DNA of 32,000 nt from Pirellula staleyi DSM 6068. Its GTDB lineage: Bacteria; Planctomycetota; Planctomycetia; Pirellulales; Pirellulaceae. This document shows, one piece after another, positions 5,967 to 25,535 of the stretch. The position numbers and the translations under genes were made by a program. Positions within the stretch are counted from its first letter, which is position 1, and every line of letters starts with the position of its first letter. Location of the stretch: contig CP001848.1 of NCBI GenBank assembly GCA_000025185.1, positions 1,500,001 through 1,532,000 on the forward strand. The letters are read 5' to 3'. The notes under the pieces were generated by a model. The model saw only the letters and a list, made by a program, of their open reading frames with translations. It did not search any database and was not told where the DNA came from.

Positions 5967-8900
5967 TAGGCTTCCTCCGTGCCGGGAACAAAGTGTCGAC
6001 TACCTGCATCACCAGGATCGAGCGAAGCACTGGCTCGTGTGGCGCGCGATTGAACGAAGGCGAACAGCGAAGGCAAAACGACGAGTGTCGAGAAGGTCGC
6101 TGCAATCAGCCCCCCCATCACCGCGCGGCCGAGTGGTGCCGTTTGTTGTCCCGCTTCGCCGAAGGCAAGCGCCATGGGGAGCATGCCAGAGAGCATCGCC
6201 AGGCTGGTCATCAAAATGGCTCGCAACCGCTGCTTTCCACCTTCAATGGCAGCTGTCGAGGCTGCGGCTCCCTCACGGCGAGCTTGTTCGGCAAAGGTGA
6301 TCAGCAGGATGGCGTTGGCCATCGCGACACCAATCGCCATGATCATGCCGATGAACGATTGAATGTTGAGCGTCGATCCGCTCAGAAGTAAGACCACGAG
6401 TGAACCGGCCACAACAGCTGGTGCAGTGCTCACTGCCACGAGCGCCAGTCCAAGCGATTGAAAGTTCGCGGTGAGGAGCAGATAGATCACGAGAATCGCT
6501 AGTAGCAGACCGATCCCCAGTCCGCTGATCATTTGCTTCATCGGTGGGATTTGCCCCCGAATTTCGTACGAAATCGCTGCTGGCTTGACCCCGTTTTGCG
6601 TGTTGACCTCGCGCTCGGCATCGTACTCCGCTTGCACCCGTTTGAGGATCGTTTCGAGGCGAGCCGACGTGCGACCCAAGTCGGTTCCGGCGAGATTGGC
6701 GGTCAAGCTCACTTCACGCTTCATGTTATAGCGGTCGTACTGCCCTGGAGTCGTTCCTTCGGAGATCGAGGCCACATCACGCAGGAGCAGCGGCGTTTCC
6801 GATTGACGAACAGGCACCGCGCCAAGCTGATCGATGCTTGTGAGAAAAGGCTGAGGAACTTCGACCTGCACTTGATAGCCGACCCCCGATTTCGGATCGG
6901 GCCAGTAGTTGGGAACCACAAAACGGCTCGATGCAGTGGCGGCGAGCACCGAGCGTGCAACTTGGCTGGTGGTGACTCCCGAGCGACCAGCCTTGATGCG
7001 GTCGAGCTTCACATCCACGGTGGGATAGTCGAGCGACTGATAGAGCTGGACATCGCGTAGTTCAGGAAGTTCGGCTAGCGCCGTGGTAACGCGCCCAAGG
7101 AAAGCGCGATTCTCGGCTACCGATCCGCCGCGAGCCGCAATTTCGATTGGCGTGGGGGAACCAAAGCTCATCACTTCGCTGACGATATCAGCTGGCTCGA
7201 ACGAGAACCGTACCTGCGGAAACTTTTGGGCCAGTTCCGTACGGAGCTCTTCTTTCACCACTTCGGTGCGAATGCCGGTGTGTGGTTTCAGGGCGATGCG
7301 GAGGATTGCCTCTTCGGGGCCGCGCGAGAATTGATAGACGGCGTTGATTGGAAAATTCGAGTGAATCATGCCGACATAGCCCAGCGTGATATCGACATTT
7401 TCGGGGCCCACTTTCTGGCCGATGTGATCGAGTACACCGAGGGCGATGCGCTCGGTCTCTTCGATGTGGGTTCCATCCTTGGCGCGAAAGCGGAGGCGAA
7501 ATTCCCCTGCGTCGATTTGCGGGAAGATCTCGATCCCGATCTGGCTACCGACCACTCCAATTGTCAGGAGTGAAGCGGCTAGGTAGGCCGGAATCACAAT
7601 CCAGCGGGCGGCGACCATGCCGCTGACAAACGTGCCATAGAAGTCGCGATAGGTATTGAAAGCGAACCAGTTTCGCGAGCTACTACCAGGCTGACCTTCG
7701 CTCCGATGGCCATGCTGCTCGGCATGCGAGTGGCTGTGATGTTGGAGGAGCCAGGTCGAGAGAATCGGTACGAAGGTGCTCGAAAGGATGTAGGAAGCAA
7801 TCATCGAAAAGCCGACCGCGAGCGACAGCGGCACGAAGAGTTCGCGGGCAGCGCCGGTCATAAAAAAGCTTGGCACAAACACGGCAAGAATGCAAAGCAT
7901 CGCCAGGAGTCGCGGGATTGCTGTTTGCGAGTTTCCACGCCGCACGGCGAGCGCTACGCTGTCGGTGTGATCGAGTTGCGAATGGATGTTTTCGATTTCC
8001 ACGGTCGCTTCGTCGACAAGAATACCGACCGCCAGCGCAAGTCCGCCAAGGGTCATCAGATTGATCGTTTGGCCGCAGATCCAAAGGCCGACCACCGCAG
8101 CGGCGATCGCCAGCGGGATGTTGAGCACCACTACAAGTGCGCTGCGCCAATCGCGCAGGAAGACGAGCACCATCAAACCGGTGAGGAGCGCGCCGAGGGC
8201 CCCTTCGTGGAGCAGGCTGTCGATGGCGCGGGTGACATAGGGGGACTGATCGAACTCGAACGACACACGAATGTCGTCGGGCAATTCCTTCTGCATACTC
8301 GGTAGTGCCCGCTTAATTTCGTCGATCACACTCATCGTCGAAGCATCCGCGCGCTTGGTGGCGAGGATGTAAACCGCGCGGCGGCCATTCACTAGTGCAT
8401 AGCCGGCCGAGATATCGGCGGCATCGACGATCTCCGCTAAGTCGCTCAAGTAGACGGCGGGATTCGCACCGACCTTGATTGGTATCGTGCCGAGTTCTTT
8501 GGGATCACGCACCATCGCATTCATCGGCACGATGGGATAGGAGTTCCCGACGTGCAGGTTTCCGCTGGGGCTGATGGTGTTGCCACTCACCAGTGCATTG
8601 ATGACATCATCAGCCGACACGCCATAGGCACGCAGTTTGTCGGGCGAGACACGGAGCACCACGGTGCGCGCACTTCCACCAAAGGGTGGCGGCGCTGATA
8701 CACCTGGAAGCGCGGAGAAGAGGGGACGAACCTTAAAGAGGGCGATGTCTTGAATCTCGGCGATCGTGCGTGTTTCGCTGGAAAGGACGAGATAACCGAC
8801 CGGCACGCTGCCGGTATCAAACCGCATCACAAACGGCGAAACGGTTCCTGGTGGCATGAAGGCGCGCGAACGATTCACGTAGTTAATCGTCTCGGCCATC

Positions 8901-9265
8901 GCCTGAGCCATGTTGGTGCCGGGATGAAAGTAGAGCTTCATCAAGGCGTTGCCTTGGACGTTTTTGCTTTCGACGTGATGAATGCCGCTGATGTAAAGAA
9001 AGTGATATTCGTAGTAGTTGGTGATCAGCCCTTCCATCTGCGCGGGGTCCATGCCGCCGTACGGCTGACAGACGTAAATCACTGGCAAATTGAGCGCGGG
9101 GAAGATGTCGACCGGCATCCGCTTGAGAGGCAACTCGACCCCATACTGCGACAAGTACTGATCGACCGACTTGGGGCGGACCGCAACGCCAGCGGCGAGC
9201 AAAATGGCGATGATCCCGACCACAATGGTCAGAGGACGTCGCATGGCAAAGATCACCGGATTCAT
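5966..9265 (-). CDS. RND efflux transporter inner-membrane subunit (AcrB/CusA/CzcA superfamily)
   Basis: The track ORF is 1182 aa, but its first 83 codons run into the upstream gene and spacer. ATG at 9265 gives MNPVIFAMRRPLTIVVGIIAILL, a canonical RND N-terminus/TM1, and a 1099-aa product. It shows a two-lobe 12-TM layout, a TM4-type motif GLALAVGILVDEATVEIENIHSQL (7973-8044), and a His-rich loop HHSHSHAEQHGH (7706-7741). Confidence 0.9.
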   Translation of the reverse strand: MNPVIFAMRRPLTIVVGIIAILLAAGVAVRPKSVDQYLSQYGVELPLKRMPVDIFPALNLPVIYVCQPYGGMDPAQMEGLITNYYEYHFLYISGIHHVESKNVQGNALMKLYFHPGTNMAQAMAETINYVNRSRAFMPPGTVSPFVMRFDTGSVPVGYLVLSSETRTIAEIQDIALFKVRPLFSALPGVSAPPPFGGSARTVVLRVSPDKLRAYGVSADDVINALVSGNTISPSGNLHVGNSYPIVPMNAMVRDPKELGTIPIKVGANPAVYLSDLAEIVDAADISAGYALVNGRRAVYILATKRADASTMSVIDEIKRALPSMQKELPDDIRVSFEFDQSPYVTRAIDSLLHEGALGALLTGLMVLVFLRDWRSALVVVLNIPLAIAAAVVGLWICGQTINLMTLGGLALAVGILVDEATVEIENIHSQLDHTDSVALAVRRGNSQTAIPRLLAMLCILAVFVPSFFMTGAARELFVPLSLAVGFSMIASYILSSTFVPILSTWLLQHHSHSHAEQHGHRSEGQPGSSSRNWFAFNTYRDFYGTFVSGMVAARWIVIPAYLAASLLTIGVVGSQIGIEIFPQIDAGEFRLRFRAKDGTHIEETERIALGVLDHIGQKVGPENVDITLGYVGMIHSNFPINAVYQFSRGPEEAILRIALKPHTGIRTEVVKEELRTELAQKFPQVRFSFEPADIVSEVMSFGSPTPIEIAARGGSVAENRAFLGRVTTALAELPELRDVQLYQSLDYPTVDVKLDRIKAGRSGVTTSQVARSVLAATASSRFVVPNYWPDPKSGVGYQVQVEVPQPFLTSIDQLGAVPVRQSETPLLLRDVASISEGTTPGQYDRYNMKREVSLTANLAGTDLGRTSARLETILKRVQAEYDAEREVNTQNGVKPAAISYEIRGQIPPMKQMISGLGIGLLLAILVIYLLLTANFQSLGLALVAVSTAPAVVAGSLVVLLLSGSTLNIQSFIGMIMAIGVAMANAILLITFAEQARREGAAASTAAIEGGKQRLRAILMTSLAMLSGMLPMALAFGEAGQQTAPLGRAVMGGLIAATFSTLVVLPSLFAFVQSRATRASASLDPGDAGSRHFVPGTEEA

Positions 9266-9353
9266 AGATTGCTCATGGCGTCGTGATGGTGGGGAGGAAG
9301 TGTTCGAGACTTGCTGATCGTTGGGGAGTGTGTCGCTACTCGTCGCTGGCTGG

Positions 9354-11204
9354 TTAGTTCGTTTCCTGTGCCAGCTGGGTAGGAGCGCCACCGACAGCTC
9401 GCAGGAGTTGAAACTGAGCCAGGTTATAGTCGATGACAGCTCGCAGGTAGTCGCGACGCGCGGCGCCGAGGGCCTGCACCGACTGTAGCGCCTCGATCGG
9501 AAGCCCTTGGGCACTTTCGATCCGCTTCAGGTTGCGTCGATGAGAATCGAGGGCAGCTTGAATGCCGCGCTCGGCAACAGCAATTTGCTGCTGGCGCGAC
9601 TTGACCCGCGCGTGCGCTTCAACAACTTCCCCGGCTACGCGGTCCATGATGGCGACGTTGCGCCACTGGGCTTGTTCGATCCGCGTCGCCGCTTCCGTAC
9701 GAGCAGCCCGTTCACCGAGTCCAAAATTACGGATCTCCCAGTACGCAGCAGCATCGCCATCAAAACGATCTTCCACCGGACTGAAGTTCGTACCAAGTCC
9801 CCCACCCATGCCGCCATAACTGGCACCTAGGAGGACGCTCGGCAAGAGGGGCGCGAACTTCTCTCGGCGCATTTTGGCAACGGCTTCACTTACGAGCCAG
9901 CGACTTTCCGAAAGTTCTGGACGCTGCGAAAGGCCTTCGGCTACGAGGTCACCCAGTGGTGCTTCGGGATCGTACAGCCGAATCGGTGCAGCCACTGGTT
10001 CCTGGACCAGCAGCGGCTGTGAAGGATCGATTCGCAGGTGCGTGGCGAGTCGAACGGAAGCAACCTGAGCTTGCTCGATAGCGCGGAGTAGTTCGTTTTC
10101 GCGTAAGGAATAATCGGCCTGCGAGCGATCGTAGTCCGAAGCGAGCCCCTGCCCCGACTTGGCGTAAGAATTCGTGAGGTCGGCGAGTTGCTTGGTGTTG
10201 CGTAAGGTTTCGCGTGCGATCTCGGCATCTCCTTCGGCTCGCAGTAAATCGAGGTACAGCGAAGCTGACTGGTACATCGCATCGAGCATTGCTGTTTGCG
10301 AGGCCCACGCACGGGCCTCTGCCTGGCTCGCGAGAATCTTGGGCTGGAAGATGGCATCGGCCGTATGAAAGTTCATCCAGACGCCAGGAACTTGCGGCGA
10401 GCCTTGTCCGACACCCACGGCGCCGAGGCCGCCGTAGTAGCCACCACGACTGGTGTCGAACACATTGCCGGCGACATCTTGAATCGCTTGCTCGTGGCGG
10501 TTGTAGGAGATGCCCATCCGCAGGTGAGGGAGCCACAAGATTTCAGACCGCGACACTTGGGCGTAGGCCTCTTGCACCCGCCAGCGCGCAAACTGCACCT
10601 GGGGATTGTTGGCGTCGGTGGCTTGCAGGGCCGAGACCAGGTTCATCGGCATGCCGCGCGGGACATTGTTTTGCAGGTGCGCAGCGGCTCGATCGCGCTG
10701 CCGTTCGGGAAGCGTTTCGTAGCTAACTGGTGGCATACGGTCTGGATCGGGCATGGGACTGGGGACCGGCACCATCTCGGTTTGCACGAGAGTGACCGGT
10801 TGCACCTGCGACGCTGGCGGGGTGACGCGAGCGACATAGTTGGCAGTCGCCACAGGAGCGGGTTCGTCCGCTGCTTCGATCGGAGGGAGACGTTCGATGC
10901 GTGGTCGTGCTGCCGACCATTGCTCGAGAGGAACGGGCTTGAGCTGCGACGCGAGCGGACGTGAAGCGGGGGCTGAACTGGCTGCGATGGGTGCGCTACG
11001 CGGTGCTGTCGGGAGAGCCGAGTTTGATCCAGGAGCAAGGGCCACGCTGCTCGGCTGAAGGTTCGGGGCAACGGCTGGCGAAGGTCGACGGGCTGCAAGC
11101 GGTGTCGAGAAGTTGTCGCCTTCGCTCGGCGCCAAACAGCCTACGATCGCCAGCAATAAGCTAGAGACCATGGCTAATCTGCGTTGTTGACATGTGCCGA
11201 GCAC
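9354..11204 (-). CDS. TolC-family outer membrane efflux protein (OMF) lipoprotein with long Pro/Ala-rich N-terminal linker
   Basis: 616-aa ORF with a GTG start and signal + lipobox (RRLAMVSSLLLAIVGC). A ~150-aa Pro/Ala/Ser-rich low-complexity segment comes next. TolC-type helical repeats follow (LVSALQATDANNPQVQFARWRVQEAYAQV; LSQRPELSESRWLVSEAVAKMRREKFAPLLPSV). An alternative ATG is at 11171. Confidence 0.85.
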   Translation of the reverse strand: MLGTCQQRRLAMVSSLLLAIVGCLAPSEGDNFSTPLAARRPSPAVAPNLQPSSVALAPGSNSALPTAPRSAPIAASSAPASRPLASQLKPVPLEQWSAARPRIERLPPIEAADEPAPVATANYVARVTPPASQVQPVTLVQTEMVPVPSPMPDPDRMPPVSYETLPERQRDRAAAHLQNNVPRGMPMNLVSALQATDANNPQVQFARWRVQEAYAQVSRSEILWLPHLRMGISYNRHEQAIQDVAGNVFDTSRGGYYGGLGAVGVGQGSPQVPGVWMNFHTADAIFQPKILASQAEARAWASQTAMLDAMYQSASLYLDLLRAEGDAEIARETLRNTKQLADLTNSYAKSGQGLASDYDRSQADYSLRENELLRAIEQAQVASVRLATHLRIDPSQPLLVQEPVAAPIRLYDPEAPLGDLVAEGLSQRPELSESRWLVSEAVAKMRREKFAPLLPSVLLGASYGGMGGGLGTNFSPVEDRFDGDAAAYWEIRNFGLGERAARTEAATRIEQAQWRNVAIMDRVAGEVVEAHARVKSRQQQIAVAERGIQAALDSHRRNLKRIESAQGLPIEALQSVQALGAARRDYLRAVIDYNLAQFQLLRAVGGAPTQLAQETN

Positions 11205-11709
11205 GGAGCAGCCTCCAGAACAGTTCTCAGGGGCGACCTGCGGTGGTCGCTAGGTTGAGAATCGGCAGTCTAGTGGAAGCGGATAAAGCGATTCTGCTGT
11301 TTGTAGGGGCTTCTCGGCCCTGGTTTGCCTCCCAGAGTCACCGATGGAGTGTGCAGATAATTTCTGTAAGTGATTTTCTGAAAAAGACTTGCGATCAGTC
11401 CACTGCCGCACAGAAGTGCATGGATTCTAAGGTGAGCGATCTGGCACATGATCTACATCTGTCACTGAAAAAGGGAGCGGAGCGAGCAGATCATAATTGC
11501 ATGACAGTCAAACGATCGTTAGTGCATTGCGCCACCAGCTCCATCGATGCCAATCAGGTCTTCTTCGGCGGCCTGCTGAACGCTCGCGGCCAAGTCGGTT
11601 TTTCATACTGATTGGCGCGAGAGGCAGATCGCATGTGTGTTTGATGCTCTTGCGCGTGAAACGTGCAAAGGGCTCATTTCATGCTGGCAATACGCAAAAG
11701 AAACGCTTG

Positions 11710-12066
11710 CTAGCGCTTGGGACGGGCGTTGTAAACACCTTCGGGAGTCGCCAGTCGGAGGGGCTCGATTTGGATGCGCGCTGCTGCGTCCCAAATCGCT
11801 TGGCGTGAAGGGACGACATCGGTTTGCTCGATGTAGAGCGAGCGTGTTTTGTAGTCGACCGCGACGCGCTTGATTCCCGGAATACGCGATAGTTCCTTGA
11901 TCGCCGGGATCGATTCTTTGGCGCAGCACAGATGTTTCACCGTCAAAATCGCGGCATATTGCGGCGCTGCTGGTGGCGCTGGCTGCTGCGCTTCAGCCCG
12001 CTCTGCGCCGATCGTTGCCAGTGTAAGAAGTCCGAGGATCAGCTGCCGAAAGTTGCGCGAGAACAT
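11710..12066 (-). CDS. Exported HMA-like (ferredoxin-fold) small protein with variant metal motif H-L-C-C
   Basis: 118-aa ORF with an ATG start and a signal peptide (LILGLLTLATIGAERAEA). ILTVKHLCCAKESIPAIKELSRIPGIKRVAVDYKTRSLYIEQTDVVPSRQAIWDAAARIQIEP aligns by eye to the heavy-metal-associated pattern V-x-G-M-x-C-x-x-C...G-V-x-x-V-x-V-D. HLCC (11923-11934) stands where MxCxxC would be. The gene is the last one after the TolC of the ABC pump, with a 54-nt gap. Confidence 0.6.
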   Translation of the reverse strand: MFSRNFRQLILGLLTLATIGAERAEAQQPAPPAAPQYAAILTVKHLCCAKESIPAIKELSRIPGIKRVAVDYKTRSLYIEQTDVVPSRQAIWDAAARIQIEPLRLATPEGVYNARPKR

Positions 12067-12120
12067 AGGTCTTTCCTTGAAGTGTCGAGTAACGTGAAAT
12101 TCAAAACAGTGAGCAAGCGA

Positions 12121-13551
12121 CTAACGACGATCGAGGCTTCCCGATAAGAGCATCCCTTCGATCTCCGCTTCAGCGGCGCGCAGCTCGCCGAGCGATTCGA
12201 GGTAGTTCAAGTGCGTTTGCGAGAAGGTGCGCTGCGCGGTGAGCAGATTGATATAGCCTGTCTCGCCCGCTTGATACGATTTACGCAGCAGCTCGAGCGA
12301 CTGACGCGAGACAGGCAGAATGCGCGTCTGATATTTGGCGACTTGACTCGCCGCATTAGCGTAGCGCTCGAAGACCGGCGCGAGTCGATGCTGCAGCGAC
12401 ATTTCGAGCTGCTCGAGCGCGCGCTCTGCTGCCACAGCCTCTTGAGCCGCTTGGATCACACCCCCTTGGTTGCGATCCCACACCGGCAACGGAATGCCGA
12501 CGGTGATACCTCCATCCGATCCACCGCCAATGCCATTGTCGCGCCAATTCACGAGCCCCTGAACCGTGATGTTCGGCGTCTTTTGGACCCGAGCCCGTTC
12601 GGCTTCCCAGCGTGCCCGTTCGATTTCGGCCAGCGCGGCGGCAATCTCTGGACTTGTTGTAAGGAGTCGCTGCAGGCTCGTTTCCCAAGCGAGTGGCGGG
12701 CGAAGCTCCTCCAAATCTCCTACGAGTGGCTGTGGCTCGAGCGACGGATTTCCGAGCACCGACGCCAATCGTTGCCAAGCTGCTTGCGAGCGATTCCGAG
12801 CGTTTTCGACGAGGATTTCTAAGTTTTCGAGCTCGAGCTGGGCCTGCAGCAGATCGACGCGCCCCACTTCCTGCGCTTGCTCAAGAGCGGCTGCTGTTTT
12901 CATCCCCTCCGCTGCGATTTGGCGAAGCTCCCCTGTCAACGACGCTTGCCGCTCGGCGATCAGCACTTGGTAGAAGGCAATTCGCACATCGGTCAGCACG
13001 CGTTGCTGCTGAGCCGCCAATTCCTGCTCCGCCTTGGCCACTTCCTGCGAAGCGACGTTGCGGCTGAGCTGTAGTTTGCCGCCGCGCACAATCTCTTGCT
13101 CGACAAACAAACCCTCTTGCTCAGCAGCTCCACCACTACCGATCTGCTGCCCTTCGTACCCCACGGTTGGATTCGGCGCAAGACCAACCTGCAACCAGTG
13201 TCCTCGCGCTGCTTCGACAAGCGCACGCGCCCGCGCAACTGAGGGACTGGCTGTGAGTGCCATCTGCTCGAGATCAGGGAGCGTGAGTCCGGTGGTCACC
13301 GGTTTCTGCAAGAGTGGCGGCAAAATTTCCGCATGCGGCACAGAAGATTCAGACGCTGTAGTTCCAGGTTCATTGGTTCCTGGATCGGTGAACGAGGCTT
13401 GCTCGACCGAGGGACTTGCGCTTGTCGGAGTAAAGCTCGTGGGAGTTGGCGTGAGACTTGGGATCGGTGGCGCTTCGCGCGCGGGGCGGGTCGTGTGACA
13501 GCCGACGATCAGCAGGATCGACGTCATCACGATGGGGCGTAAATTTTTCAT
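12121..13551 (-). CDS. TolC-family outer membrane efflux lipoprotein (CzcC/CusC-like)
   Basis: 476-aa ORF with a lipobox (SILLIVGC) and a Pro/Thr/Ser-rich linker. OMF repeats follow (LEQMALTASPSVARARALVEAARGHWLQVGLAPNPTVGYEGQ; LLTTSPEIAAALAEIERARWEAERARVQKTPNITVQG). Confidence 0.85.
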   Translation of the reverse strand: MKNLRPIVMTSILLIVGCHTTRPAREAPPIPSLTPTPTSFTPTSASPSVEQASFTDPGTNEPGTTASESSVPHAEILPPLLQKPVTTGLTLPDLEQMALTASPSVARARALVEAARGHWLQVGLAPNPTVGYEGQQIGSGGAAEQEGLFVEQEIVRGGKLQLSRNVASQEVAKAEQELAAQQQRVLTDVRIAFYQVLIAERQASLTGELRQIAAEGMKTAAALEQAQEVGRVDLLQAQLELENLEILVENARNRSQAAWQRLASVLGNPSLEPQPLVGDLEELRPPLAWETSLQRLLTTSPEIAAALAEIERARWEAERARVQKTPNITVQGLVNWRDNGIGGGSDGGITVGIPLPVWDRNQGGVIQAAQEAVAAERALEQLEMSLQHRLAPVFERYANAASQVAKYQTRILPVSRQSLELLRKSYQAGETGYINLLTAQRTFSQTHLNYLESLGELRAAEAEIEGMLLSGSLDRR

Positions 13552-13625
13552 GCGAGCCTCCCTGCTCTTCCAGCGATCTACTACTGTCTCAGCTAAAAGG
13601 TTTGCAGCTCAAGCGAGTTTGCGAA

Positions 13626-14768
13626 CTAAGCCTGCCGCAGGGCGTGAACAATTTCGCTACGTGCCGCTTGCCAGCCGGGCGCGATGCCAGCGAGAAGACC
13701 GACGACGGCCGAGACGATCGCGCCGGTGAGTGCTAAATCGAGCGAAGGCTCGAAGGCAATCGTCACCCCTTCTGCGCCGACCGCAAAACGGCCCCAGGCC
13801 AGCAGTGCGAGACCTGCCCCGATTCCGAGGCCACCCCCGGCAATGCTTTGCAGCATGCTCTCGGCGAGAACGAGTCGAAAAATTCTTCCGGGACGAACTC
13901 CCAGCGTCTGCAGCACCGCATGTTCTTGGATGCGATCTTGCACCGCCATCACGGTGGTTGTAGCGACAAGCGCGAGGACCAGACCGACACAGGCGTAGCC
14001 GAGCCAGTGAGCAAACCCGATCAGCTCAGCGAGATCCGCCAGCGTGTCGCGCTGAAAGAGACCTTTCGAGCGTGTGGTGGTGGCGACAGGACCACTTTGA
14101 AACTGTGCATCGATCGCAGCAGCGATTTGGTCGGGATTGGCTTGCTCGCTGAGCTGAACTTCCAGCTGCGTCACCGTTCCGACGGAGCTACTTCCCTGCG
14201 CACGTTGCAGAAAGTCGAGATGGGTGTAGATGTAGCTTTCTTCCGCAGCGACAGCCGACCGAAAGATCCCCACGACATGCACCGTCACTTCTCCCATCGT
14301 GAAGCGCTCCCCGACTTGAATCCCTCGTCGCTTGGCAACGGCCTGCCCCACCATCGCTCCATCGGTTCGCGTGGCAAAGGAGTCCCAACCACCAGCCACG
14401 AGCTTCAGGTCGCGCGCTGCGCGGAGCTGTTGCGGCGGCATTCCGTGGAAGACCACCACATCGAGACTCGCTCGGCAATTGTTCGTAAGCACCTTGATCG
14501 GCACCACTTCCTTCACACCTGCGAGCTTCGCCGTCGCGCGTGCATAATCCTCGGGAAGTTTGCTACTGGCAGGACAAAAACGGTTCTCTTGAAACACGAT
14601 GAGGGTCCGCAAAGCTGCTTGATCTTCTGTGAGTCGAGCGAGTCCACGCTGTACCGAACCGACGCAGCAGAAGACAAACAGCGCGACCGCCGAACCACTC
14701 ACCGTCAGGAGTGTGCGATTTCGATGTCGCCACAAACCTTTCAGAACGTAGGGAGCTAGTGGAAGCAC
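13626..14768 (-). CDS. ABC transporter permease, FtsX/MacB/LolE-like (permease 2)
   Basis: 380-aa ORF with a GTG start 3 nt after the ATPase stop. The N-terminus [28 protein letters not shown] is typical of FtsX-family TM1. A ~220-aa periplasmic domain follows, then a C-terminal 3-TM FtsX domain ([49 protein letters not shown]). Confidence 0.85.
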
Positions 14769-14771
14769 GAT

Positions 14772-15497
14772 TTAGGCCCTTTTCTCGAGTGGATAAGGGG
14801 TTGAAGCGAGAGCCAGGTCGCGACCTTTTTCGATCAGCTTCCCTTTCTCGAGTCGAATCTGTCGCCGCGCGAGCTGGGCAACTTTCGGATCGTGTGTTAC
14901 CAGCAAAAGTGTCATCCCGAGTTCGTCGTTGAGTCGCTGAACGAGCTCCAAGATTTGCTCCGTGGTATCGGCGTCGAGATCGCCAGTCGGCTCGTCACCC
15001 ACGATGATGGTGGGACTGGCAACAATCGCGCGTGCAATGCCGACACGCTGCTCTTGGCCACCCGATAGCTGGCGAGGATAGTGCTGCGCACGATCGCGCA
15101 AGTTCACCGCCTCGAGGGCAATCTCGACACGCTTGTGACGCTCGGCAGACGAGATCGGCAGCAGTAGCAGCGGCAATTCGACATTCTCATAAGCAGTGAG
15201 GACCGGAATCAGATTGTGCATCTGAAAGATGTAACCGATGTTGGCAGCACGCCAATCGGCAAGAGCTCCGCGCGACAGCCGCGTGATGTCGGAACCGTTA
15301 ATCACAATCTCCCCCGACGTTGGTCGATCGATCCCAGCGACCGAGTTGAGGAGGGTGCTTTTTCCGCTTCCACTGGCCCCCATCAAGGAAACGAAATCGC
15401 CACGTTCGATATCAAGATCGACATCGAGCAGAGGGGTGATCACTTCGTCTCCCTTGCGGAATTGCTTGGTGAGTCGACGAATTTCTACGAGAGCCAT
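14772..15497 (-). CDS. ABC transporter ATP-binding protein (MacB-NBD/LolD-like)
   Basis: 241 aa. Motifs seen: Walker [13 protein letters not shown] signature LSGGQEQRV, Walker [13 protein letters not shown] and H-loop LLVTHD. An AGGAAA sits upstream of the ATG. Confidence 0.95.
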
Positions 15498-15519
15498 AAC
15501 AAGTTTCCTGCAGTGAAGA

Positions 15520-17139
15520 CTATTTGGTGGTGGGGGAAGTTGGCTGCGCTGTGCGAGCTGTCGTAACTGGGGCAGACATCGAATCGCGCGATGTACCGAG
15601 CGAGCGATCGGCCCCTGTCACTCGAATTCGCGCTCCATCGGCTAGTTCATCGCGCCCCGCGACGATCAATTTGTCGAGCGCCGTAAGTCCACCGATCACT
15701 TCGACAAGCTCGCTCGTCTTGGCCTCGCCGAGCTGAATCGTTTGTCGCCGCGCGATCGTTTGCGAGCCATCGATGATCCACACACTCGCCCCACTTTCGC
15801 TCGTTTCGACGAGCTCTTGAGGGACGAGCATTCGAAGCGGATCGTGATTGGCTTCGGTTGCAGGTCGCGCACTTTGCGGCGCGAGGAAGGTGACCTGCGC
15901 GAGCATCTCGGGACGCAAAACCTCCGGTGGATCGGTGATCGAAACTTTGACCTGCAGCGTGTTTTTTTGAATGTCGGCCTGTGAGGTGATTCCGAGCACG
16001 ACCCCCTGCAAAATCGCTGGCGATGCCGACGTTGTAAGCTGGACACTTTGTCCGAGCTGAACTTGCGACACATCTTCGAGTCGCACATCGACGCGCACTT
16101 GCAGCTGTTTGGGGTCATACAGCGACGCGACGCTGCTCGAATCACTTTCCGACGCGCTTGTGAGTCCCATCAAGCGCGAACCGGGACGAGTGTGAAGCGC
16201 CAGCACGCGCCCCTGGATTGGCGAGCAGACCGTCATCCGCGCTAGGCGGAGCTGAATCGTTTCGATGGCCAGTTCTGCTTGCCGCACATGCGCTTCAGCG
16301 GCAGTGAGCCGAGCCTGCGAGTCTGCTGCGGCCAGCGTTTCGTCGGTCTTGAGCTTAAGCTTGGTATGGAGCGCTTCGCAGCGGCGTTGCCATGCGGCTT
16401 GCTGTCGCGCGAGGGTTGTGCCCCGCTGCTCGAGATCGGCAAGCGTGGCCGAGGCAGCGTCGAATTCGCTCTGTGCTTTTTGAATCGATCGACCGGCGAT
16501 GGCATCCGCCACTTGCTGCTTAGCTTCGAGATCTTGTCGCGCGAGTGTGAACCGAGCCCGTGCCGATTGAATCAGAAACGGAAGATTGTTGATTTCGGTT
16601 TCGAGCGTCGCGAGCGCCGCGTCCGCCTCGGCATGTTCGGCCTCTAAATGAACCGGCTGATCGAATTTCGACTGCGCGCTGGCGACAGCCGCTCGAGCCG
16701 CATCGCGCTCGGCCTGTCGCAGCAGCAGGATCGACTCCGCTTCGGCCAGTTGTAGACGAACGTCGGCATCGACCAGTCGCGCGATCGGCTGGTTCGCCTC
16801 GACATTTTGTCCCTCGACCACCAGCAACTGCTCGACTACCCCTTCGACAAGTGCCGAGCAAATCACAGCGGTCGGACGGGGCTCGATCCATCCAGCAGCT
16901 TGAAACAGGGGAGTTCCCGCCTGTTGCACCTCGGCCCGTGTCAGCAAAACAGGCATGATGGTGACTGGTGCTGCTGGGAGCCAGAAGTCGCGCGCTGACC
17001 AGCCAACGAGGGCGACAAAGCCTGCTATGGTGAGTAGCGGCAAGCCCCAAGAAAGTGTCGTACCCCGTTTACGTGCTCGAGGAGTTTCAGGAACTACGCG
17101 ATCGACGGTCAGTTGTCGGAGATCTACTTGAGTTGCCAT
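15520..17139 (-). CDS. HlyD-family periplasmic adaptor of the ABC pump
   Basis: The track ORF (592 aa) starts inside the upstream permease gene. ATG at 17139 ([14 protein letters not shown]...) gives 539 aa. It has an N-terminal TM anchor ([19 protein letters not shown]), a lipoyl-like motif ([20 protein letters not shown]), a long Ala/Gln/Glu coiled-coil hairpin and a beta-barrel C-terminus. Confidence 0.85.
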
Positions 17140-17201
17140 GGCTGTATTTACTGTCGACTTAACGCTGAGGTGGCTGGTGAAAGAGTGCTTTGACAAGCGG
17201 A

Positions 17202-18371
17202 TTAGAGCGCTTTGAGTCCCTCGACGATCTCGTAGCGCATCGCCTTCATGGCCGGGGGCAAAGCTCCCAGAACGCCGAGTAGAAAACCGGTGCCACATCC
17301 CACCAGCATGGCCAGACTATCGACACGCAGTGCGAACGCTCCCATGGTGAAACGAACGGCGGTGCCATTAACGAGCAGCAACGCGATCGTGCATGCCAGA
17401 AGCGAAGCGGTCATCGATAGCAGGGTTGCTTCCTGAATCAAACTGATGGCGATCGAGCGGCGGCGATAGCCGATTGCTTGCAGCGTCGAGAGCTCGCGAA
17501 CACGTCCGACCACAGCCCCGTACATCGTGTTGAGTCCGGCAAAAATTCCTGCGCCAGCAACGAGGACGACGACAATCCAGCCGAGCATACGAACCGGCTG
17601 ATAATGTTTTTGTAGCGAGGCGTAGTAGGCAGTTTCACCGACAGCTTGGAGCTCGAGATCGACACGCTCTTTGCAAAAAAGCTCGACATCGGAGGGTGCG
17701 GCACCACTCGTGAGCCCCACTGCCACCAGGCTGATATCTTGCCGCTTGAGCGCCGTTTGCAGATCTTCCAGTGGTGCCCAAATCTCCGATTCAAAGGCGG
17801 CTCCCCTCGCGCTGAAGCGTCCGCTGATTGTCCACTCCCGATTGTCGAACCGCAGCGTTTTTCCGATCGTGAGCAGCTCGGCTTTGCACCCCAGTTTGGC
17901 GGCGGCAAGTTTCCCCACGAGGATTTCTCCGGTCGCAGGCCACTTCCCTTCGATCATCGCCACTTGGCGCCGCAGAAGCGGTGTGGCGGAGGTGACACCA
18001 CGCACGATGCCAAACATCCCCGGCGCATCGACAGCGGTTTGCACTTTGGTGCCGATATAAAGTTCGGGCGCCACATGACTAGTTCCAAAGCGACTCTCCA
18101 CACCATCGAGACTGGCGGAGAGGAGCGCCGCTGTTCGACCAGGGATCGCGGAATTCTCGATATCGGCCGCAGCGCCGATGGAGTAGACGAGCACCACTTG
18201 AGAATCGCCACTCGAGGCGAGCGATCCTTCGAGTCCACGAATGAACGCGACGACGACCAGCACCAGCAGCACGACGGTGGTGAGTGCGGCGAGTGTCAAA
18301 CCACTTCGCGCGGGGCGGCGAAATAGGTTGCGAATTCCGTATTCCCACGGAAGAAGTCGTAAGTGAAACAT
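17202..18371 (-). CDS. ABC transporter permease, FtsX/MacB/LolC-like (permease 1)
   Basis: 389-aa ORF with AGGAG 7 nt upstream of the ATG. The N-terminus is [34 protein letters not shown], followed by a large periplasmic domain. The C-terminal FtsX domain is [54 protein letters not shown]. Confidence 0.85.
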
Positions 18372-18438
18372 CGTGAACTCCTACGCTGAACTCCAAGAAA
18401 CTCTTGCCGTCGACCTGCCTGTCATCGAGCAGCGAGCT

Positions 18439-18945
18439 TTAGCGGCGGATGAAGAAGCCATCGGCTGCAATCGAGACGTTTCCCCCCTTGTCGCGCGATG
18501 CTGTCCCTTGAATCACAACCGTTTCTTGCTCTTTCACGCCGAGTAGTTCGCGAGCATCGTGCGCGATCACTTTGCCATCATCCCCTACGAACTTCACCAT
18601 GGTGGCGGCCGCCATCATCTCCTTGGCACAGTCGGCGCAATCAGCCTGGCAATGCCCCGCAGCATCGCACGAGGGAAGGATACGTGTGTCGACAATCAAA
18701 AAGGCAGCTCGACCTTCGACCCACGGATTCACACCACCACCGAGTCGACCGACCACGACAACCGGCTGGCCATCTTGGGCCGACTCTTTCACGTCGAGCA
18801 CTTCGACAGCCCCTTGGGGCTCGGCAGAGAGCTGAAACTTTGTCGCCGTCGCCGACTCGATTGACGAAGCAGAAGACCGAGCGCATCCGGTGATCATCAG
18901 GGCCATCATGGAAACCGAAGCGACGAAATAAACGAAGCAGCGCAT
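18439..18945 (-). CDS. Lipoprotein with C-x5-C-x3-C-x2-C cluster, unknown family
   Basis: 168-aa ORF with signal + lipobox (MMALMITGC). Cys cluster CDAAGHCQADCADC lies at 18628-18669. Codon third positions are GC-rich. The gene ends 67 nt upstream of permease 1 on the same strand. Confidence 0.65.
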   Translation of the reverse strand: MRCFVYFVASVSMMALMITGCARSSASSIESATATKFQLSAEPQGAVEVLDVKESAQDGQPVVVVGRLGGGVNPWVEGRAAFLIVDTRILPSCDAAGHCQADCADCAKEMMAAATMVKFVGDDGKVIAHDARELLGVKEQETVVIQGTASRDKGGNVSIAADGFFIRR

Positions 18946-18957
18946 GGAAAGTTCCTC

Positions 18958-18975
18958 TTCCTTGCAGGCAAGGAA
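18958..18975. promoter_or_regulatory. 8+8 inverted repeat TTCCTTGC-AG-GCAAGGAA abutting the lipoprotein RBS
   Basis: Arms 18958-18965 and 18968-18975 are perfect complements. On the minus strand the 3' arm runs into GCAAGGAAGAGGAA, 12 nt before the ATG (18943-18945). It could be an operator or an RBS-occluding hairpin; function is not established. Confidence 0.4.
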
Positions 18976-19107
18976 AACTAGGAGATGTGTGAAATGAAAG
19001 ATGCGAAGCGCGCACGTTACGTCGAAGGACGAGTAACTAGCGCTACTGAAATTGGCGGCGAGCAGAAGACTATGAAAGACAAGCCGCAGGGACTTGTCGG
19101 TCGCCTA

Positions 19108-19650
19108 TCAAGACGTGAATCGGCAAAGAAGTGCACAGCGTGCCAGGGCCGAAGAACCAGGGTTTGTAGGACACACTAGCGCCCAAGAGCGAGCTTGATC
19201 GGCCGCTACTAGCCGAAGCAGAAGTTCTGCGTCGGCAATGACGATTGCAGTCGGTGGATCGAGCTCGATCTTCGTCGATTCGACCGCTGCGACGCGCTGC
19301 TGATGTCGCGTAAAACAATCGCAGTCGGTGGGGCAGTGGCAAGGTGTCGCGTCGATCCAAAACTGCTTGGTTGTGTCGGCTTCAGCGATCGTTTCTCGTG
19401 CAATCAGCTCGCCCGGCACCTCGAGATTCGAAGCATCGAGCTGCTGCGGCTGATCGATGTGGTCATGGCATTCAGAGTGATTCTGTACGCAGCGAGCGTC
19501 ATCACACGAGGCATGCTGGCAGGTGGTCTCGCCAGCGGTGACGACGCAGCAATCGCAGGCACAATCGAGGGCTAGCAATGGCTGCACGGGGATCACCCCG
19601 GCTGTGAGCCAGATCACCAGCTTCGCGAGTTGTTGCCGCCACACGTACAT
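19108..19650 (-). CDS. Exported/anchored Cys- and His-rich protein (metallothionein-like motifs), unknown family
   Basis: 180-aa ORF with GC-rich third positions and an N-terminal hydrophobic segment (LAKLVIWLTAGVIPVQPLLAL). It has 15 Cys by hand count, including CACDCC, CQHASCDDARC, HSECHDH and PCHCPTDCDC. It is the first gene of the minus-strand block. Confidence 0.6.
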   Translation of the reverse strand: MYVWRQQLAKLVIWLTAGVIPVQPLLALDCACDCCVVTAGETTCQHASCDDARCVQNHSECHDHIDQPQQLDASNLEVPGELIARETIAEADTTKQFWIDATPCHCPTDCDCFTRHQQRVAAVESTKIELDPPTAIVIADAELLLRLVAADQARSWALVCPTNPGSSALARCALLCRFTS

Positions 19651-20314: not shown

Positions 20315-22858
20315 GTGCTGCGCGCCCCTGCTCTGCTGGATGAATGGATGTCACGAATCACAAGACGCGACACGCGACATGTCACGATGGCCCGCGCGCT
20401 CCATGCGCGACTTTACCTCAGCGCCGATGGGAAGCTCTTTTCGTTTCGCGGAAAAGTGCCGTATCAGGATCTAATCGCCGCACTGCTAAAGGATCGTCTG
20501 GCCAGCACGCTGGCCGAGCGTACTCCGACTCCGCAAGAGCTGGGCATTCATCCCTGCGATGGTCAGCTCTGCCCCCAGGTGCTGCACAACTTTCAAGTGG
20601 CGCTTCATCGCTGGGGCAAAGAATTGTCGGAAGAGAAACTCCGCGCTCGCGCACGCCGTCGACGCGACAGCGTGATCGCCAGCGAGCAAGTGGAAGTGAA
20701 ACTGCTCGGTGATCGTCTCACGGAGATCCGTCAGAAACTTGCAGCGCACAAGGAATTGCTCGCTACTGGGGGCTGCTACTTTCTCGACGCCGCAACCGAA
20801 GCAACTCTTGCTGCGCTCCTTGCTCAATCGCGACGCAGCTTGGCCATTCCACCTGCGGTGGCCTGGCTAGCGCGGATGGTTTTCTGGCTCTCGGGCGAAT
20901 GTGCTGCGCGACGTTTCATCCGCGCCGCTGAAGTGCTGCTGGAAACCTATCCCAAGGTTTCGCTCGCGATGCAGCTCGACGGTTTTCAGCGTGCGCTTCA
21001 GGTTTGGAGAAAACGCTCGGAGATCCAGCCCGCGCGACAGCTTCGCGACGAACTCGCTGCCCACGTGGCGCAGCTATCTCCGGAACTTGCGCGTCGTGTT
21101 CAACTCTCGGTACGTCTGCGCGGTCGCACCATGCGGCAGCACTGCGATCTGCTGCTTACGCGCTGCGCGCAGAGCGTCAAGCACGAGCAGCGACTCTATT
21201 GGCAAACCATCCCCGCGCATTTGGCGGCGCTGGTGGCTTGCGATGGAAGTGCCGTCCCCATTCCACAGCGCTGCCTCACATCGACCAAAGAACGAACGGC
21301 TCATCCGTCGCAGGTGGAAGAGTTTCGCAGCCTCGCTCATGAAATGGAGGAGCCGGGCTACGACGCGCTACTCCGAGCGATCGATGAGCTCGCCGAGCCC
21401 GCACCGCGTAGCGAGTATGGATCGTTGCGCCGACATCTTGTTGCAGGACAATCACTCGACAACATCGCTTGGCTTATTCAAAACTACGCGCTTTATCACA
21501 TCGCCAATCAAACCCTGGATATAGCGCGTGCTCGTCGTCTCGTCGACCGTTTGGAGAAATCCGGATTGAAGATTGAAGATTGGTATTTGCCACGAATCAT
21601 CAGCGCAGTATCGGACACGAGACTTCGCGCTGCGATCGAGCGCTGGGTCGATTGGCTGGCGAGCGTCTCACCGCGTAGCGTCACGCCGAAGCTGCGCTTG
21701 GTACTCGAAAAATTTTTCCGGAATCGCTACTTGCCCCTCATTGGTCAAGTTGGTTGGTTCGAAAAAGTGAGTCCTGCCTTGCTGCCGCTACAAGGCGATC
21801 CCTCTTCGAGCTCGATCACGGAACTTCTGCAGCGACTCGCCAACTATCAGCAACTGCTGGGGCATGCAGCGGAGCTGCCCAAATCGCTTCGTAAAATGGT
21901 CGATTCACACGAGCGTGAAGCGCGTGAGCGCATGCACCTGCGCGCGCAACTAGTTAGCGGATCACTCAGCACATCAGCGGCCCAGCGCTGGCAATTGCTC
22001 GAAGCCCGGTCGAGCGATCGGTCTGATACCAGTAAGCTGCGGCGCGTGGCCGAGGAAGCTTATTTGAAGCTTGGTGTCGAAACGCAGCTGACAGTGATGA
22101 AACAGCTCGCGCTCGCTCGATCGCAAGACTACCTGGGAGAGATGGCCGAGCGACTGAGCTGCGATCAACTGTGGCAATGCGTCAACTGGCTCGAGGAACT
22201 TCCGGCCGAGGAACGAACGCGACTTCGAAGGCTAGTCGCATCGCATCGCTACTTTGGTAGCAGCTACAAACAACAGCTCCCCGAGAATCAGCCGTGGATA
22301 GCAAAAGCCGCTGCAGAAGGTTTTGATCTCGTGTCGTGGTTCGCCCCGCCGTCGCACAGGCTGATGCTCGGACAACAACGCTGCGAAATTCTCATCGCTT
22401 GCGACATCGAGAAGGTTTTGCTCATGGGGGAATATTTCGACACGTGCCTCGGCTTCGGTGGTGTGAATAATCGGACGACGATCACCAATGCCTACGACGC
22501 CAACAAGCAGGTGGTATTCGTCGTGACGCGCGACAGCGAGGGGCGCGAACGCGTGCTAGCTCGCATGCTGCTGGCGATCAGCCGCGACTGGAAGCTTGTG
22601 CGTTACCGGCTCTACATGGCGGTCCCTCGCACCGAAACGGCAACTCGCACAGCGGTGTTCCACGCCGTGACGAGCTTTGCCGCGCAGATTGCGAGCGACT
22701 GTGGTTTGCCACTTGCCGACAACGGAGCCCCTGAGACGATCGGCGAGCACTTCTGGTACGACGACGGAACCATGGAGTGGCCAGCACGGGCCTATGCCGA
22801 ACTGCGCGATGCGCTCGAAGACCATGCTTCGCAGTTCAGCATGTGCGTTGGCTTGTGA
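20315..22858 (+). CDS. Large hypothetical protein (847 aa), mostly alpha-helical Leu/Arg/Ala-rich with distinct C-terminal domain
   Basis: This is the only long ORF here, and the opposite-strand ORFs are short. I recognised no signal peptide, P-loop or catalytic motif. The C-terminal segment contains LMGEYFDTCLGFGGVNNRTTITNAYDANKQVVFVVTRDSEGRERVLARMLLAI (motif 22421-22471). The start is uncertain (GTG 20315, ATG 20348 or ATG 20387). Confidence 0.75.
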   Translation: MLRAPALLDEWMSRITRRDTRHVTMARALHARLYLSADGKLFSFRGKVPYQDLIAALLKDRLASTLAERTPTPQELGIHPCDGQLCPQVLHNFQVALHRWGKELSEEKLRARARRRRDSVIASEQVEVKLLGDRLTEIRQKLAAHKELLATGGCYFLDAATEATLAALLAQSRRSLAIPPAVAWLARMVFWLSGECAARRFIRAAEVLLETYPKVSLAMQLDGFQRALQVWRKRSEIQPARQLRDELAAHVAQLSPELARRVQLSVRLRGRTMRQHCDLLLTRCAQSVKHEQRLYWQTIPAHLAALVACDGSAVPIPQRCLTSTKERTAHPSQVEEFRSLAHEMEEPGYDALLRAIDELAEPAPRSEYGSLRRHLVAGQSLDNIAWLIQNYALYHIANQTLDIARARRLVDRLEKSGLKIEDWYLPRIISAVSDTRLRAAIERWVDWLASVSPRSVTPKLRLVLEKFFRNRYLPLIGQVGWFEKVSPALLPLQGDPSSSSITELLQRLANYQQLLGHAAELPKSLRKMVDSHEREARERMHLRAQLVSGSLSTSAAQRWQLLEARSSDRSDTSKLRRVAEEAYLKLGVETQLTVMKQLALARSQDYLGEMAERLSCDQLWQCVNWLEELPAEERTRLRRLVASHRYFGSSYKQQLPENQPWIAKAAAEGFDLVSWFAPPSHRLMLGQQRCEILIACDIEKVLLMGEYFDTCLGFGGVNNRTTITNAYDANKQVVFVVTRDSEGRERVLARMLLAISRDWKLVRYRLYMAVPRTETATRTAVFHAVTSFAAQIASDCGLPLADNGAPETIGEHFWYDDGTMEWPARAYAELRDALEDHASQFSMCVGL

Positions 22859-22927: not shown

Positions 22928-23113
22928 CGAGGTCTGGTCGCTGGCGTCTCAGCATTCCGTTCGCTTCGGATTTCACTTGACTCAGCAACAGCCTCGCGGT
23001 AGTTTCATCGACGATCGTTGATCGGTTCCCCACCACCCCTACCCACCTGCCCTGCCCTCGCCTCTCGCCCGTTTGAATCTCCCCTTCCCATCCACTTCGG
23101 TAGGAGGACAGCA

Positions 23114-25477: not shown

Positions 25478-25535
25478 ATGCTCGGCCCAGTACAGCGGTC
25501 CGAATTTTTTAAGTCACCTCACGGAGAATCGACCG

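Follow-up and report, generated by a model that had tools for sequence, protein, structure and literature searches.

A MacB-type tripartite pump of Planctomycetota with a co-encoded OB-fold cysteine lipoprotein: a candidate route for thiophilic metal efflux

The 32,000-nucleotide (nt) stretch of Pirellula staleyi DSM 6068 DNA analysed here (contig CP001848.1, positions 1,500,001 to 1,532,000; hereafter the window) carries eight co-directional genes on its minus strand between window positions 11710 and 19650. The first in the direction of transcription is an intact open reading frame (ORF) for a 180-amino-acid (aa) exported Cys/His-rich protein (19108..19650; 15 Cys and 6 His), and it is followed by an intact ORF for a 168-aa lipoprotein with an OB fold and the lipobox ITGC (18439..18945). 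The pump genes come next, namely permease 1 (17202..18371), a 539-aa adaptor of the membrane fusion protein (MFP) type with an N-terminal membrane anchor (15520..17139), a 241-aa ATP-binding cassette (ABC) ATPase of the LolD/MacB/DevA type (14772..15497), permease 2 (13626..14768) and a 476-aa TolC-like outer-membrane factor (OMF) with the lipobox IVGC (12121..13551); all five pump ORFs are intact. The last gene, also intact, encodes a 118-aa exported MerP-like protein with an HMA fold and an M-C-C-A-K-E motif (11710..12066). Judged by gene order and domain content, the eight genes are one predicted operon for an ATP-driven, envelope-spanning tripartite pump of the MacB/FtsX (type VII ABC) kind. 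An earlier reading of the window made from its letters alone (the sequence-only reading) had counted seven genes here while its own list named eight. The gaps of 3 to 162 nt that it gave agree exactly with those measured (162, 67, 62, 22, 3, 74 and 54 nt, in order), and its remark that the block lacks a regulator gene fits the Pfam and NCBIfam searches, which found no regulator domain in any of the eight proteins.

Profile searches against Pfam and NCBIfam, read against the cut-offs of the models, bore out all five pump components that had been named from sequence (two FtsX permeases, a HlyD adaptor, an ATPase and a TolC lipoprotein). Permease 1 matched MacB_PCD (PF12704; E = 1.5e-12, 48.7 bits, cut-off 27) and FtsX (PF02687; E = 8.9e-09, 35.9 bits, cut-off 25.5), and permease 2 matched the same two models with higher scores (PF12704, E = 1.1e-16, 62.1 bits; PF02687, E = 1e-11, 45.4 bits). 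Both therefore have the layout that defines a type VII permease, a MacB-like periplasmic core between transmembrane segments (TM) 1 and 2 together with a four-TM FtsX domain. Their closest solved relatives are Spr0695 (5xu1_M), MacB and LolC, in matches that are weak (E between 1e-5 and 1e-3) and cover the FtsX domain only. The ATPase matched ABC_tran (PF00005; E = 1.5e-33, 116.8 bits), and its best NCBIfam models were LolD, YbbA, FtsE, the MacB nucleotide-binding domain (NBD) and DevA, with LolD at the top but under its cut-off (230.3 against 307.75 bits). The adaptor matched HlyD_D23, HlyD_3 and, above the cut-off of 94.9 bits, TIGR01730 (122.7 bits); among solved structures its best match is the CzcB-like heavy-metal MFP ZneB (E = 6.5e-7). 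A longer alternative ORF for the adaptor begins at 17298 and overlaps permease 1, and the start at 17139 is the most likely one because a 98%-identical twin in a metagenome-assembled genome (MAG) is called in the 539-aa form. The OMF matched OEP (PF02321) over two stretches (E = 6.3e-36, 124.4 bits, cut-off 22). The locus thus combines an NBD of the LolD/MacB/FtsE clade with a co-encoded adaptor and OMF, as in type VII tripartite systems, and it holds in one place the two MacB-like permeases, single ATPase, MFP and dedicated OMF of a heteromeric two-permease pump. From these assignments, the membrane-anchored adaptor is predicted to link the motor to the operon’s own lipidated TolC-like channel.

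We compared the ORFs of 77 related loci with the window proteins (73 genome loci plus metagenome contigs found through homologues), and 72 of the 77 carry the core pump. Permease 1 and permease 2 share 23% identity with each other, while each has orthologues in the related loci at 53–85% identity (55–85% for permease 1). These values indicate that the permeases are an ancient fixed pair, which favours a heteromer resembling LolC/LolE over two separate homodimers. The inner-membrane motor would then presumably consist of the two different permeases and two copies of the single ATPase. Cysteines in the permeases are also strongly kept: C233 of permease 1 is invariant in 62/62 sequences, including a clade that lost its possible partner C199, and C65, C98 and C260 of permease 2 are invariant in 50/50 orthologues.

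The 168-aa lipoprotein belongs to a family that gave no Pfam or NCBIfam match, even at E ≤ 1, and whose profile gave only chance-level matches against the sequences of the PDB (none below E = 0.08). The lipobox residues G20-C21 are invariant across the family. An AlphaFold2 model of the window protein (mean predicted local distance difference test score, pLDDT, 81.4) formed a five-stranded OB barrel, and Foldseek matched it to Ten1, to the anticodon-binding OB domain of LysRS/AspRS and to YgiW (1nnx) with E-values of 3e-4 to 1e-3. A cysteine loop, C93-x5-C99-x3-C103-x2-C106, is inserted after strand 3. Four loop cysteines are present in 70/86 members and at least three in 85/86, and His-rich C-terminal tails, with up to 20 His, occur in 10/86. 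The loop has two forms: an ‘internal’ type with the strongly conserved motif C-x4-8-C-P-T-P-W-D-Y-C-C, and an ‘upstream’ type, to which the window protein belongs, with C-x5/6-C-x3-C-x2-C. Clustered at 90% identity, the family gives 70 groups; it occupies 73 loci among Planctomycetota genomes sampled at one per species, and an exhaustive hidden Markov model (HMM) search found about 1400 representatives at 50% identity. That search also returned fused double-OB lipoproteins of ~310–340 aa with two matched stretches each, and some operons carry tandem pairs of internal lipoprotein genes (L019 9164-10570; L029 4961-6066); double-OB or tandem examples are P0146, P0176, P0200, P0213, P0215, P0221, P0228 and P0253. 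Distant homologues were also seen at two loci that have no ABC pump (L075 9531-10393 and L076 9983-10585). The first of these adjoins an HMA-like ORF and an RND (resistance-nodulation-division) gene, which suggests that the OB/Cys lipoprotein may have other partners too.

The 118-aa protein carries a signal peptide and has 33 homologues (clusters), some of which are named CopZ in the source databases. In this family C47, C48, A49, K50 and E51 are invariant, so that M-C-C-A-K-E (CC-x2-E) occupies the putative metal-binding loop. That the protein is HMA-like, as had been proposed from sequence, held at the level of family and fold: 23/24 members match PF00403 at E ≤ 1 (best 4.2e-5), and the family profile has periplasmic MerP as its best PDB match (E = 3.9e-5). 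In that alignment the second Cys of CC..E falls on the first Cys of the MerP TC..C motif and the Glu on the second. The window protein itself is borderline by sequence (PF00403, E = 0.059, 14.2 bits, under the cut-off of 24.8). Its AlphaFold2 model (pLDDT 83.6, above 94 in the domain) has a beta-alpha-beta-beta-alpha-beta fold (E37-43, H49-60, E65-71, E76-81, H88-97, E102-106), and all 50 top Foldseek matches were HMA domains. Homologues sit after the OMF gene in loci of the Pirellulaceae clade, and some loci of the Planctomycetaceae have another HMA protein ahead of permease 1.

Two further exported families are rich in cysteine. The 180-aa protein has an export sequence, either a signal peptide or an N-terminal anchor, and gave no Pfam or NCBIfam match, even at E ≤ 1. 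A word-indexed search had returned only its 98%-identical twin; its status as an orphan was nonetheless rejected, since BLASTP and HMM searches of the related-locus ORFs found homologues (25–36% identity) at the same place, the head of the operon, in 10 loci of the Pirellulaceae clade. The residues invariant among them, nine Cys and one His (C30, C32, C34, C104, C106, C110, C112, H116, C172 and C176), fall into three motifs, a DCxCxC that follows the signal sequence, PCxCPxDCDCxxRH and a C-terminal CxxLCRF, with a variable, fast-evolving Cys/His-rich linker between the first two. The other family, of ~134 aa, exported and probably lipidated, is encoded just before permease 1 in 61/72 loci (for example L006 2631-3035 and, in Planctomycetaceae bacterium SH248, L053 7852-8262); it has the invariant motifs CPxxC, CxxC and CxC-GAV and no Pfam model. 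We considered whether the two families are homologous, their genes having been duplicated as a pair with the lipoprotein gene, and set this aside at an hhalign probability of 4%.

The order permease 1, lipoprotein, adaptor, ATPase, permease 2 is kept in most of the 72 core-pump loci, and several paralogous pump copies occur per genome. Homologues of the lipoprotein lie within the pump operon at nearly all of these 72 loci. On this synteny, the internal lipoprotein with its OB fold and 3–4-Cys loop is a conserved operon member and the hallmark of a pump family that spans the Planctomycetota. Relatives in the Pirellulaceae clade have two lipoprotein paralogues, one upstream of permease 1 and one internal. 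The nearest public sequence to the window is MAG GCA_002483025.1, 98% identical, and the nearest named relatives are Pirellulaceae. Neither the window locus nor its 98% twin (L005) has the internal lipoprotein or the ~134-aa gene. The 168-aa lipoprotein is accordingly best viewed as the ‘upstream’ paralogue of the family’s core lipoprotein, and the window copy as a reduced paralogue from which two small, otherwise nearly universal Cys proteins have been lost. A complete paralogue lies in the same MAG (L006 1-20354; contig DLHC01000031.1), where the genes run in the order Cys/His protein, upstream lipoprotein, 134-aa Cys protein, permease 1, internal lipoprotein, adaptor, ATPase, permease 2, OMF and HMA-like protein, and continue downstream with an MFP-RND pair, a 169-aa protein, a canonical HMA protein and a Zn/Cd-type P1B ATPase.

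The sequence-only reading had described the pump as bracketed by three Cys proteins and had offered an absence of conserved synteny in relatives as grounds for discarding its interpretation. Synteny is present: the lipoprotein family lies inside the operon across the phylum, and the HMA-like and Cys/His proteins accompany the pump within the Pirellulaceae clade. The description of a bracketed pump overlooks, however, that the ancestral position of the lipoprotein is internal, and that the window copy has lost this internal lipoprotein along with a further Cys protein. Some variant loci were also seen. A PD-(D/E)XK gene (PDDEXK_3) lies between adaptor and ATPase at two loci (L002 5415-5789; L003 5432-5806) whose operons are otherwise intact and are followed directly by a P1B ATPase. 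Another related locus (L004 88-3451) lies beside two ParB/RepB genes and a serine recombinase, which suggests a plasmid or other mobile element.

Genes for heavy-metal handling recur around the pump. P1B heavy-metal ATPases lie within 10 kb at 10 loci, with scores well above the TIGR01525 cut-off; those directly after permease 2 score best as the Zn/Cd/Pb type, and one upstream ATPase as the CopA type. Anatilimnocola sp. NA78 has two pump loci (L013 and L014), each beside a P1B ATPase. HMA-like proteins occur near the pump at 17 loci, and a CusB-like RND adaptor with a heavy-metal-binding domain recurs at 4. Flanks of 6 kb or more were available for 49 loci, and at 18 of these (37%) a P1B ATPase or an HMA protein is encoded within 10 kb. 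By a rough estimate that assumes no more than about ten P1B genes in a genome of 8 Mb, adjacency within 20 kb would be expected by chance in a few percent of cases. No other recurrent theme (regulator, biosynthetic or peptide) emerged among the remaining 150 neighbours, which were heterogeneous.

The surroundings of the operon in the window were also annotated. A weak terminator-like hairpin found by a consensus scan on the minus strand (11701..11718) overlaps the stop codon of the 118-aa gene and may mark the end of the operon, although terminator-like sites in the region were not more numerous than expected from shuffled sequence; the promoter/terminator scan of the region found no sigma-70-like promoter. 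After a gap of 505 nt, a second tripartite pump follows directly downstream (4602-11204, minus strand), with a lipobox-bearing 616-aa OMF whose long N-terminal extension is rich in Pro, Ala and Ser, an RND transporter (likely start 9265) and an MFP. We considered this transporter as a metal pump of the heavy-metal efflux (HME) class and rejected the assignment, as multidrug RND models outscored CusA/CzcA and all scores were below the cut-offs. The RND protein contains a His-rich insertion, HHSHSHAEQHGHRSEGQ (7691-7741; residues 592-608 of the long ORF), that could be a metal-binding loop. Elsewhere in the window, three ORFs at 20315-22858 (plus strand), 27924-31115 (minus) and 31130-31945 (minus) encode proteins of 847, 1063 and 271 aa with no Pfam match; at the first two of these positions the twin locus also has large Pfam-less genes, of 823 aa and 1058 aa (the latter cut by the locus end). 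Between them, at 23018-27844 on the plus strand, lies a PSCyt2/PSD1 and DUF1501 pair typical of planctomycetes, followed by a 339-aa WD40 beta-propeller protein, and DUF7133 occurs among the genes surrounding the operon.

We consider efflux of thiophilic metals from the periplasm to the outside the best reading of this system, and we place its probability at about an even balance. It draws support from the neighbourhood, as P1B ATPases and HMA proteins are the genes that recur beside the pump. Further hints are the invariance of C233 in permease 1, which holds even in the clade without C199, and the match of the adaptor to the heavy-metal MFP ZneB. MacB-type transporters take periplasmic substrates and work by mechanotransmission (PMC5985334), and PA4063-66, a MacB-type system whose periplasmic accessory protein binds metal, has been proposed to export pyochelin-Co (PMC11481552). 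In the proposed scheme, metal would reach the periplasm from outside or through P1B ATPases and would be captured there by the tetra-Cys lipoprotein, the MerP-like CC-HMA protein and the Cys/His-rich 180-aa protein. It would then be handed over to the periplasmic domains of the permeases with their invariant cysteines and be expelled through the adaptor/OMF duct by ATP-driven mechanotransmission. The substrates would most likely be divalent cations of the Zn/Cd/Pb type, possibly Cu/Ag/Hg. Such a scheme would parallel CopA with CusCFBA or ZntA with CzcCBA, an ABC motor replacing the RND motor. More tentatively, and with a probability that we put well short of even, the loci may together represent a heavy-metal resistance class found across the Planctomycetota, a type VII ABC transenvelope pump with an obligate tetra-Cys OB lipoprotein and a thiol relay downstream of P1B ATPases, and so the first ABC counterpart of CusCFBA/CzcCBA. 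Metal extrusion was the first of two options raised in the sequence-only reading; it gains independent support from the P1B/HMA neighbours and from the His-rich lipoprotein tails, while the interpretation as a whole is supported only in part.

Several observations weigh against metal efflux, and some of them fit a general exporter of xenobiotics or antimicrobial peptides like VarACDEF, MacAB or YknWXYZ, in which the OB lipoprotein would be a disulfide-stabilised structural or assembly subunit and the metal neighbours would reflect generic clustering of resistance and envelope-stress genes. Every characterised tripartite MacB-type pump exports organic molecules, and the substrates of characterised MacB-type pumps are macrolides, peptides, siderophores and glycolipids rather than bare ions (PMC8277102, PMC11481552). 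An accessory membrane protein is required by YknWXYZ, so an additional subunit has precedent in a general pump. The four conserved cysteines of the exported lipoprotein may do no more than form two structural disulfides, and their even number (four in most members) fits this. About 63% of the well-flanked loci have no metal-related gene nearby, the window has no P1B ATPase within its 32 kb, and the RND pump adjacent to the operon is generic, with no clear sign of being a metal pump. Neither the operon domain calls nor the 150 neighbours yielded a metal-sensing regulator. The 118-aa window protein, apart from its sub-threshold PF00403 score, lacks the canonical M-x-C-x-x-C motif in loop 1 and has a non-canonical one instead. 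Finally, without the internal lipoprotein and the ~134-aa Cys protein, the window operon may be degenerate or dependent on a paralogue. A general exporter nevertheless leaves much unexplained: the only recurrent neighbours are HMA and P1B genes, some lipoproteins bear His-rich tails, the operon itself encodes a MerP-like protein, a single pump comes with three or four distinct families of exported Cys-rich proteins, and permease 1 keeps a lone invariant periplasmic Cys. On balance we regard general efflux as unlikely, though the most probable of the rivals to metal efflux.

Other explanations give the cysteine-rich proteins a different role. The second option of the sequence-only reading was that the pump exports a Cys-rich protein encoded in the operon (the 180-aa protein or, in relatives, the ~134-aa one), possibly loaded with metal. 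Export of enterotoxin STII by MacAB-TolC and of darobactin by DarBCD are precedents, the ATPase and adaptor resemble DarD and DarC (both below threshold), and the candidate genes stand at operon heads, encode signal peptides and contain fast-evolving Cys/His-rich linkers between invariant Cys motifs. Proteins of 130–180 aa with many cysteines are, however, far bigger than known MacB cargo, and no maturation enzyme or protease was found in the operons. The window operon keeps its pump though it lacks the 134-aa protein, and the 180-aa family is confined to one clade while the pump is phylum-wide; we consider protein export improbable. Slightly less probable again is export of a metal-chelator (metallophore) complex or another thiol-reactive small molecule, with the Cys proteins as periplasmic receptors. 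MacB-type pumps favour bulky substrates, and the MacB-type transporter PA4064/65 with its periplasmic metal-binding accessory has been implicated in pyochelin-cobalt export, but genes for metallophore biosynthesis or TonB receptors are not a recurrent feature of the neighbourhoods, and PA4063 and PA4066 are not related to the accessory proteins of this pump. Least likely of the rivals, and very improbable, is a Lol-like machine for sorting or surface exposure of lipoproteins with the co-encoded OB lipoprotein as cargo. The order permease, ATPase, permease resembles that of Lol, LolD is the best NCBIfam match of the ATPase, and the lipoprotein gene is always linked to the pump; yet every Lol model falls far short of its cut-off, the locus encodes an adaptor and an OMF, which LolCDE lacks, and genomes carry several paralogous copies. 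From general knowledge of duct dimensions, a folded 15-kDa OB domain containing disulfides should moreover not pass a TolC-type duct.

The architecture of the pump is itself not new. The sequence-only reading had taken characterised MacB-type tripartite pumps to be fused homodimers and had set the locus apart from these and from LolCDE by its Lol layout with an adaptor and an OMF. Published systems undo that contrast: the split tripartite systems DevBCA-HgdD and YknWXYZ are known (PMC8277102), and VarACDEF of V. cholerae, characterised by experiment, combines two distinct MacB-like permeases and a separate ATPase with an MFP and an OMF of its own (PMC5595328). VarACDEF has the same core subunit inventory as the locus described here, as far as a likeness drawn from description only can show. 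It differs in conferring macrolide resistance, in LysR regulation alongside a metallo-beta-lactamase and in gene order, and accessory genes of the Cys-cluster lipoprotein, HMA-like and Cys/His-rich kinds are absent from it. With E. coli MacAB-TolC and S. pneumoniae Spr0693-0694-0695 the present pump has in common the MacB_PCD and FtsX fold, an adaptor and periplasmic or extracytoplasmic substrates; MacB, in contrast, is a fused NBD-permease homodimer that uses a shared TolC, and neither of those two systems has accessory Cys proteins. LolCDE is alike in its heteromeric pair of paralogous FtsX-type permeases with a separate ATPase and, in part, in gene order, but it is single-copy and essential, whereas the pump here is multi-paralogue. 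Identity with LolCDE was rejected on the scores (permease 2, 54.4 bits against the TIGR02212 cut-off of 362; permease 1, ~16 bits; the ATPase again under the LolD cut-off) and because the locus has an adaptor and an OMF.

Among metal systems, CusCFBA (Cu/Ag) and CzcCBA/ZneCBA (Zn/Cd/Co) share the logic proposed here, a transenvelope pump with its own OMF that clears periplasmic metal with a P1B ATPase nearby, and cusF, the gene for a small OB-like periplasmic chaperone, adjoins cusB. The likeness is one of functional logic only, as their motor is an RND antiporter and that of the present pump a type VII ABC transporter. The putative ligands here are Cys, as opposed to Met or His in the RND systems, and the lipoprotein is unrelated in sequence to CusF. 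To our knowledge, and in the literature searched, all known transenvelope metal efflux systems of Gram-negative bacteria are RND-driven. The same searches found no ABC/MacB-type metal efflux pump beyond PA4063-66 and no description of this planctomycete system. P. aeruginosa PA4063-PA4066 and Vibrio ZrgABCDE come close in being split MacB-type ABC systems with periplasmic metal-binding accessories and an implicated role in the export of a metal species (PMC11481552, PMC8561739). They differ in having a single permease type, no adaptor or OMF in the operon and Zur regulation, which answers to metal deficiency and not excess; the accessory proteins of PA4063-PA4066 have other folds unrelated to those here, PA4063 being ferredoxin-like with His-rich loops. 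MerP shares with the 118-aa protein a signal peptide, the beta-alpha-beta-beta-alpha-beta fold and the position of the putative metal-binding loop, but it has GMTCxxC in place of M-C-C-A-K-E, and no mer genes lie near the operon.

Set beside these systems, what looks new is a variant of the heteromeric type VII ABC tripartite pump that spans the Planctomycetota and has an OB-fold Cys lipoprotein and further Cys-rich partners encoded in its operon. If metal efflux is its function, the mechanotransmission motor of the MacB type would also have been recruited for metal detoxification, an orphan lipoprotein family of ~1400 representative clusters and two further Cys-rich families would gain a function, the HMA proteins would gain a variant with a CC-x2-E site, and the metal tolerance that planctomycetes show in sediments and wastewater would be explained in part. 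Even with a non-metal substrate, the obligatory co-encoded OB-fold lipoprotein is a new arrangement of accessory subunits for the type VII ABC superfamily.

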